From NCBI RefSeq assembly GCF_003991155.1, contig NZ_CP031293.1: a stretch of DNA of 64,000 nt, one strand, 5' to 3'. This DNA is from Escherichia coli. GTDB taxonomy: Bacteria > Pseudomonadota > Gammaproteobacteria > Enterobacterales > Enterobacteriaceae. Below are positions 11,340-11,474 of this stretch, piece by piece. The notes under the pieces were generated by a model, which was not told the origin of the DNA, did no database searches, and was given only the letters and a program-made list of their open reading frames with translations. Position numbers and translations under genes: made by a program. The first letter of the stretch is position 1. Every line of letters starts with the position of its first letter.

Positions 11340-11474
11340 ATGAGCGGATGGGAAACTCTCGAAATGGTTCGTCGATATGCTCACCTTTCAGTCAGGCATT
11401 TCACCGCGCACGCGAGCAAAATCAAAGGCACAAGAGGAGAACGTAGTTTACTGAAATGTGAGGTAACTTATTGA
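11340..11474 (+). pseudogene. 3'-terminal remnant of a tyrosine integrase gene
   Basis: Translates to [30 protein letters not shown]...*, a typical integrase C-terminus (RYAHL motif); upstream frame does not continue as integrase. Confidence 0.5.

Follow-up and report, generated by a model that had tools for sequence, protein, structure and literature searches.

The short open reading frame found just outside the distal att copy of the thrW island is very probably what is left of a lambdoid prophage's integrase gene, a dead remnant of an earlier occupant of thrW that was displaced when the island arrived. The window, a stretch of 64,000 nucleotides of Escherichia coli DNA (contig NZ_CP031293.1), covers the yagU-thrW-proA region in reversed orientation with respect to K-12. 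The features on which the analysis rests are the following.

10274-10888, minus strand: yagU, conserved chromosomal flank
11170-11297, minus strand: fragment of a gene of the lambdoid tail-fibre region (3' part of a 97-aa gene, approximately its final 33-45 codons)
11297-11466, plus strand: integrase pseudogene stub, codons 321-386 and the stop of an HK75-family lambdoid integrase, over three reading frames
11340 (ATG)-11474, plus strand: 44-aa ORF of the sequence-only reading, with an alternative start at 11316 (GTG); the ancestral frame of the integrase is kept in codons 1-28 (11340-11423)
11467-11480: spacer of 14 nt (CTTATTGATTTAAA) separating the stop of the integrase from the 3' end of the tRNA
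11481-11496, minus strand: partial thrW 3' copy, TGGTGC-GATAATAGGA, 16 nt; displaced original 3' end and distal att repeat of the current island
11497-31060: current thrW island, 19,564 bp, with a P4-type integrase next to thrW
15886-18612, minus strand: gp16-like ejection-protein gene
18603-19922, minus strand: gp20-like ejection-protein gene
19922-20599, minus strand: gp7-like ejection-protein gene
20593-21054, minus strand: gp14-like ejection-protein gene
21818-24577, minus strand: primase (DUF927-Toprim)
29681-30895, minus strand: intact island integrase, 404 aa, with Arm-DNA-bind_3, Phage_int_M and Phage_integrase (PF00589) domains, co-directional with thrW
31061-31136, minus strand: thrW, intact tRNA-Thr (CGT), followed by proA; its 3' 17 nt (31061-31077) are the proximal att copy

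Identity and decay of the integrase stub

By its sequence, the stub is the 3' remnant of the integrase gene of a lambdoid phage of the HK75/mEpX2/SfX family. Positions 11297-11496 of the window aligned with the last ~200 nt of int and with the attP of phages HK75, mEpX2, HK542, HK446, mEp213, mEp043 and SfX, and a blastn comparison with the HK75 int 3' end and attP and with strain GPEC206-621 gave 179 identities over 232 positions (77% including gaps, E=1e-51). At the protein level, a tblastn search of the fragment against the lambdoid integrases of thrW phages gave an E value of 4e-16, and a blastp search with the frame-corrected sequence showed 37 of 43 residues (86%) identical to residues 321-363 of HK75 Int (E=3e-23); in this query two stop codons had been replaced by the HK75 residues, and most of the match comes from the 28 codons that were in frame without correction (MSGWETL...HASKI). 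This direct homology with the 3' end of int in phages that use thrW places the stub in the thrW-specific group of lambdoid integrases, the close relatives of the HK75/mEpX2/SfX group being prophages of the SfII/SfV/P22 type. The GenBank annotation of the attP of the matching phages reads 'type CP4-6; similar to thrW and ptwF'. The use of thrW by Sf phages and P22 is documented (PMC3636060, PMC2629481), and SfI, SfII, SfV, SfX and P22 integrate there via a 46-nt core, with int beside attP (PMC3636060).

The profile search was less sensitive on such a short stub. The raw 44-aa ORF gave no match in Pfam, and the frame-corrected 43 aa aligned with positions 138-170 of the 172 positions of PF00589 (E=2.7e-5) with 24.5 bits, for a gathering score of 27.1; the full-length relatives HK75 Int and SfV Int reached 119.7 and 158.7 bits, respectively. 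Since 24.5 bits is below the gathering score, the assignment as integrase rests on the direct homology to int genes and not on the profile.

The sequence-only reading had asked for an alignment with the integrases of thrW-associated elements, and was prepared to give up its interpretation if the fragment aligned with a non-integrase protein or formed part of an intact gene. The fragment matched the thrW-specific lambdoid integrases of HK75, mEpX2, HK542, mEp213 and SfX, and no intact gene overlaps it in another frame or on the other strand. Three other identities were set aside: a chance ORF, as the resemblance to HK75 int (blastn E=1e-51) is far above chance; a piece of an intact gene in another frame, as none overlaps the fragment in the window; and, on the position of IntF and its remote similarity to the integrase of the island (E=3e-4), a relative of K-12 IntF, which lies inside CP4-6, with its start codon adjoining ptwF, and reads away from ptwF.

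The stub represents 66 of the 386 codons of the integrase, with the truncation at codon 321 (11297). The part in frame 0 codes for 12 aa and carries two nonsense changes, TGG to TGA and CAG to TAG, near 11300-11313. After a 2-nt deletion at ~11336-11341 the homology continues in frame 1 for 28 codons (11340-11423), and after a 29-nt deletion at ~11424-11426 it continues in frame 2 (11428-11466), which reads AQEENVVY, a stop, NVR and the final stop; the first of these stops is a TTA to TGA change (L to stop) at 11452-11454 in the ancestral tail. The ancestral stop codon, TAA at 11464-11466, is kept, as seen in the multiple alignment and in the three-frame translation.

These lesions modify the picture of a 44-codon fragment with a typical integrase C-terminus. 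The ORF exists on the plus strand and ends at 11474, before the partial thrW copy at 11481-11496, and its codons 1-28 are in the integrase frame; beyond codon 28 (after 11423) it is an out-of-frame read-through to a fortuitous TGA (11472-11474), so the last ~17 codons, supposed to be the integrase terminus, are not ancestral because the 29-nt deletion shifts the frame. The gap to the thrW repeat, given as 7 bp, is 6 nt counted from this TGA and was thus right to one base. The extent of the fragment had been underestimated: the homology begins 43 nt further upstream, at 11297, in another frame, and the damage is heavier than was noted.

The HDLRHTWA motif and everything N-terminal to it are gone, and the GW and RYAHL positions are left in a frame broken twice; the catalytic roles of these three motifs are those we take to be general in the tyrosine recombinase family. 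The complete catalytic set (Arg-Lys-His-Arg-His/Trp-Tyr) is not found in one open frame of the stub. The stub is a pseudogene and, judged from its reading frames, codes for no recombinase today, the position of the tyrosine nucleophile being the only catalytic residue left; in the allele of strain HS4 the tyrosine codon of RYAHL is changed to His. In RefSeq the stub is already known as an integrase pseudogene, under the PGAP label 'integrase; frameshifted; incomplete' in strain E50 and others, and it is mechanistically ordinary; searches of the literature on ptwF and on thrW/yagU/integrase found no paper that describes it.

The left junction and the geometry at thrW

The stub meets a second phage gene fragment exactly at 11297, with an ambiguity of 1 nt. 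The segment 11170-11297 showed 82-83% nucleotide identity (E~1e-34) with the side-tail-fibre-region gene of ev243, PhiR49_1, ev207 and Tritos, and its translation aligned as GGFEPHVWGVASLKDVAVLVVASLLVWLLVNR with the phage residues 64-96. The relative strands of the two pieces (gene minus, int plus) agree with the phage maps, as in a remnant left by an internal deletion, and the junction points to such a deletion of an integrated prophage, probably in a single event. No prophage at thrW was recovered that combines the 97-aa gene with the int allele of the stub (the RRYAHL variant), so the single-deletion scenario is inferred from mosaic relatives.

PGAP annotates a 61-aa 'hypothetical protein' at 11103-11288 (minus strand), built on the C-terminal third of the 97-aa gene. 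In 11103-11297 (minus strand) the original stop of that gene is lost and a new start is gained, and the annotated protein is therefore most likely a chimeric leftover and not a gene. Going from yagU, homology to K-12 breaks off at 11049 and is found again from 11427. Between the end of this homology and the phage gene fragment are 120 nt (11050-11169), at the place where K-12 has paoABCD-yagP between yagU and ptwF; a phage search with 11040-11300 gave no source for these 120 nt. The promoter/terminator scan detected hairpins at 11096-11114 and 11508-11534, the first of them (plus strand) strong, terminator-like and followed by T6, with no plus strand gene upstream.

On the other side, the integrase remnant is convergent with thrW, its stop (TAA, 11464-11466) being 14 nt from the tRNA 3' end at the repeat that starts at 11481. 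The same 14-nt spacing was found in strains WP5-S18-ESBL-08 and GPEC206-621, in the attP of HK75 and SfV, and in Edwardsiella and Shimwellia loci. In GPEC206-621 a full-length homologue of 384 aa is convergent with thrW at this distance and is preceded by xis-like and Eag genes. The orientations that were first read from the window are thus correct: the fragment points toward the att copy, its true stop being placed as in intact loci, and the intact integrase (29681-30895, minus strand) reads away from thrW. Two tRNA-Asp (GTC) genes also occur in the window, ~8 kb apart, at 54670-54746 and 62893-62969 on the minus strand.

The state before the arrival of the island is preserved in other strains. 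In WP5-S18-ESBL-08, yagU is followed by the stub (97.6% identity, including the 29-nt deletion) and by an intact thrW, with no island. Compared with this empty site, the sole differences of the window are the 19,564 bp at 11497-31060 and one 17-nt copy of the thrW end. In a search of 5426 complete E. coli genomes with the stub tail joined to thrW, 63 genomes had the two side by side, thrW being intact and the island absent. The stub thus predates the island, because the same stub abuts an intact thrW in these 63 island-free genomes. The proposal of a relic of an earlier or tandem occupant of the site holds in its first form and is refined by the homology above: the occupant was older than the island and was a lambdoid prophage, not an island of the present type.

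It is vanishingly improbable that the stub is part of the current island, whether by duplication of a portion of the island's integrase or through a misplaced boundary. The stub lies only 6-14 nt from the distal repeat of the island, which could suggest such an origin, but it did not resemble the C-terminal end of the integrase that the island carries (E=2.1), and its presence with no island at all in the 63 genomes already refutes this origin; it is also found beside unrelated islands. The DNA outside the distal att of the island is an old prophage scar and not native chromosome, and therefore the island boundary is correctly set by the 16/17-nt repeat.

The reverse origin, in which native DNA flanking thrW was captured into the attP of the phages and is not a phage remnant, is highly improbable for the stub as a whole. 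It draws on an 18-nt tract, GTAACTTATTGATTTTAA, which corresponds to the int stop and the spacer in the phages and which adjoins thrW in Enterobacter sp. CC120223-11 (L023, ~575-625) with no integrase homology upstream; since the tract adjoins thrW there without int, the spacer and stop-codon region may be host-derived, and GTAACTTATTGATTTTAA may be a native thrW trailer carried by the phages within attP. Upstream of the spacer the evidence goes against it: the stub encodes the conserved box-II region (PF00589 positions 138-170) of the catalytic domain of tyrosine recombinases, lines up collinearly with complete phage int genes and abuts a second phage gene fragment, and genomes differ in the length of int that is left, which is a pattern of decay and not of a conserved host flank. 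A native flank is thus contradicted for 11297-11463 and possible for the last ~18 nt alone.

The element that now occupies thrW has the features of a P4-type island: an integrase by the tRNA gene, repeats of 16 and 17 nt (11481-11496 and 31061-31077) that are the same except for a 1-nt deletion in the former, and an empty site elsewhere. It contains AntA, Ash, a primase, a P22-type ejection-protein cassette, ImmA/IrrE, PerC and pRiA4b-ORF3. A megablast search of the whole island against phages gave short patches only and no known phage or satellite genome. From 15886 to 31060 the island joins the P4-type integrase, AntA, Ash and the DUF927-Toprim primase to a complete P22-type cassette gp14-gp7-gp20-gp16. 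The primase-gp14 junction was found, at a coverage of at least 80%, in 239 of the 5426 E. coli genomes and at several chromosomal positions, and the element is therefore a stable type and not a one-off fusion. Islands of this type are possibly satellites of P22-like podophages.

Distribution and recombinant alleles of the stub

Comparison of this junction across strains, the other check put forward with the sequence-only reading, showed that the stub is widespread and not specific to one strain, and it recovered both the empty-site loci and the loci with an intact int. The junction between the hypothetical-protein gene and int (11250-11386) was found in 1290 of the 5426 genomes, and the tail of the window type (11380-11480) in 175, as a single chromosomal copy in each; the stub together with the att copy and the left end of this island was found in 19. 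An exact-match scan of 100,044 species-representative genomes, which is a weak negative by its nature, did not find the junction, which is thus seen within the E. coli genome set only. The stub also occurs beside unrelated islands, namely a CP4-6-like island in HS4 and the vat island in B2 strains.

In ~1100 of the junction-bearing genomes, including the B2 strains with the vat island, the stub is a hybrid. Its first ~90 nt are those of the window allele and are followed by a tail of the SfII/SfV/SfI/SfIV type (92-93% identity; 76% to P22), as in the B2 locus L002, where 4125-4310 corresponds to 11297-11480 of the window. The point of switching is within a stretch of 26 nt, GAAATGGTTCGTCGATATGCTCACCT, in which int of the HK75 type and int of the SfV type do not differ. 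The simplest reading of the hybrid would be homologous recombination of the resident stub with int from an SfV-type prophage that occupied thrW later. Such a recombination would delete the prophage and swap the att-proximal half of the stub, because the stub and the int lie as direct repeats.

Independent stubs with other breakpoints were found, at thrW or at displaced copies of it, in AGR5151, WP4-W18-ESBL-09, K-12, E. whittamii, Escherichia sp. E1V33 and E69. The stub of Escherichia sp. E1V33 comprises codons 318-386 and is next to a 17-nt displaced copy of thrW and another island, and in E. coli E69 a 72-nt stub accompanies an att copy, while an intact int of the SfV type lies at thrW separately from them. 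In E. whittamii (L024, ~6100-6245) the stub is of the SfV type and retains 41 codons; a GATAT microhomology, within the tract that codes for RYAHL, marks its fusion to the sequence GTAGTGGCA.A.TGAATTTGGCCACCTGAA.AGAGGTGATAT, which is the same as the left end of the thrW island in E69 (L021, ~2790-2840). The fusion is another independent deletion with its end in this part of int. Stubs of integrase genes at thrW are thus common and have arisen repeatedly, and the alleles, from the full int through stubs of 66, 41 and 24 codons to the hybrid, give an example of stepwise prophage decay and of recombination between relic and phage.

The wide distribution raises the question of whether the stub is kept because it is useful, as a putative recombination anchor or att-arm module for later thrW phages, or as a small peptide, which we regard as quite unlikely. 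The retention of the junction in 1290 of 5426 genomes is compatible with it, as are the ~1100 hybrids, whose switch in the 26-nt tract suggests that the stub has recombined with the int of a later phage at least once, and the position of the int 3' end in this phage family, at which an att arm might be anticipated. Against it, the alleles vary in their stops and frameshifts, the loss of the tyrosine in HS4 is among the nonsynonymous changes, K-12-type genomes keep only ~72 nt, and vertical inheritance of a neutral scar explains the wide distribution equally well. An Rfam scan of 10800-12000 (E<=1) found no RNA family at the stub, with two sub-threshold chance matches on a terminator-like hairpin, and the promoter/terminator scan gave no signal above shuffle expectation there; with the variation among alleles, these scans give no evidence for a present function.

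A more specific proposal, which we consider unlikely, would make the stub a resident anchor of homology at thrW, recombining again and again with the int of incoming phages, deleting prophages and swapping its own att-proximal half. If it were true, one event of this kind would have left the hybrid stub of the ~1100 genomes as its footprint. The stub, which holds the int-side arm of attL, might also alter the efficiency of phage integration.

Proposed history and comparison with known systems

For the preferred reading, a dead remnant of a lambdoid prophage, the homology, the lesions, the geometry, the empty-site state and the distribution over genomes are direct observations; the order of the deletions and their mechanism would be as follows. 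A prophage of the HK75/mEpX2/SfX family would have integrated at thrW through the 46-nt core, with its int against the tRNA gene. An internal deletion would then have joined the middle of the tail-fibre-region gene (11170-11297) to codon 321 of int at 11297, and further loss of the rest of the prophage and of the distal att would have left a two-piece scar of ~300 bp between yagU and thrW. The stub would have decayed by stops, the 2-nt deletion and the 29-nt deletion. Later, a different element, whose P4-type integrase would have used a 17-nt crossover segment at the 3' end of the tRNA gene, would have entered thrW and supplied a new 3' end, leaving the old thrW 3' end (11481-11496) and the stub 19.6 kb away as the distal att. 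In this lineage the thrW hotspot thus has had at least two successive occupants, with different integrase types and crossover points. The value of the stub lies mainly in annotation and in the reconstruction of island history; it reveals no new mechanism or system.

Among known systems, the int and attP module of the HK75 group (HK75, mEpX2, HK542, HK446, mEp213, mEp043 and SfX) shares with the stub the family, the 3' end, the orientation and the TAA at 14 nt from the core. The stub differs from it in being reduced to the final 66 of 386 codons, which contain several stops and two deletions, and in having its own variant (RRYAHL) where HK75 reads QRYAHL..SAGHL; the closest allele is the relic in AGR5151.

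The ptwF/CP4-6 junction of K-12 is built in the same way, with a displaced partial copy of thrW at the far end of the island and an int relic just outside it. The yagP-ptwF spacer of K-12 (NC_000913.3, ~297,238-297,310) holds the last ~72 nt (NGTNTAQEENVV.. and the stop) of an HK75-family int. Strain EC42405 (L004), which has no thrW island, holds the same ~72-nt end of an HK75-family int in its yagP-thrW spacer. Since both spacers hold ~72 nt of int, the apparently native flank of thrW is phage-derived in K-12 and in EC42405. The K-12 junction differs from the window in having paoABCD-yagP between the relic and yagU and in lacking the 11170-11426 part of the scar; furthermore, ptwF keeps ~47 nt of thrW compared to 16 nt in the window, and this implies that the integrase type and the crossover point were different.

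The VAT-PAI was reportedly described at thrW by Parreira and Gyles in 2003. The relic near yagU in the vat-island B2 strains has the same left junction, the same first ~90 nt and the same chromosomal position as that of the window, but is of the SfII/SfV type from the RYAHL-coding tract onward and is a recombinant.

The intD-argU pair of DLP12 in K-12 presents the same arrangement, a lambdoid integrase convergent with a tRNA gene and abutting its 3' end; intD overlaps argU. The conserved segment of the stub showed 76% nucleotide identity with intD, which differs by its tRNA target and by being a full-length int.
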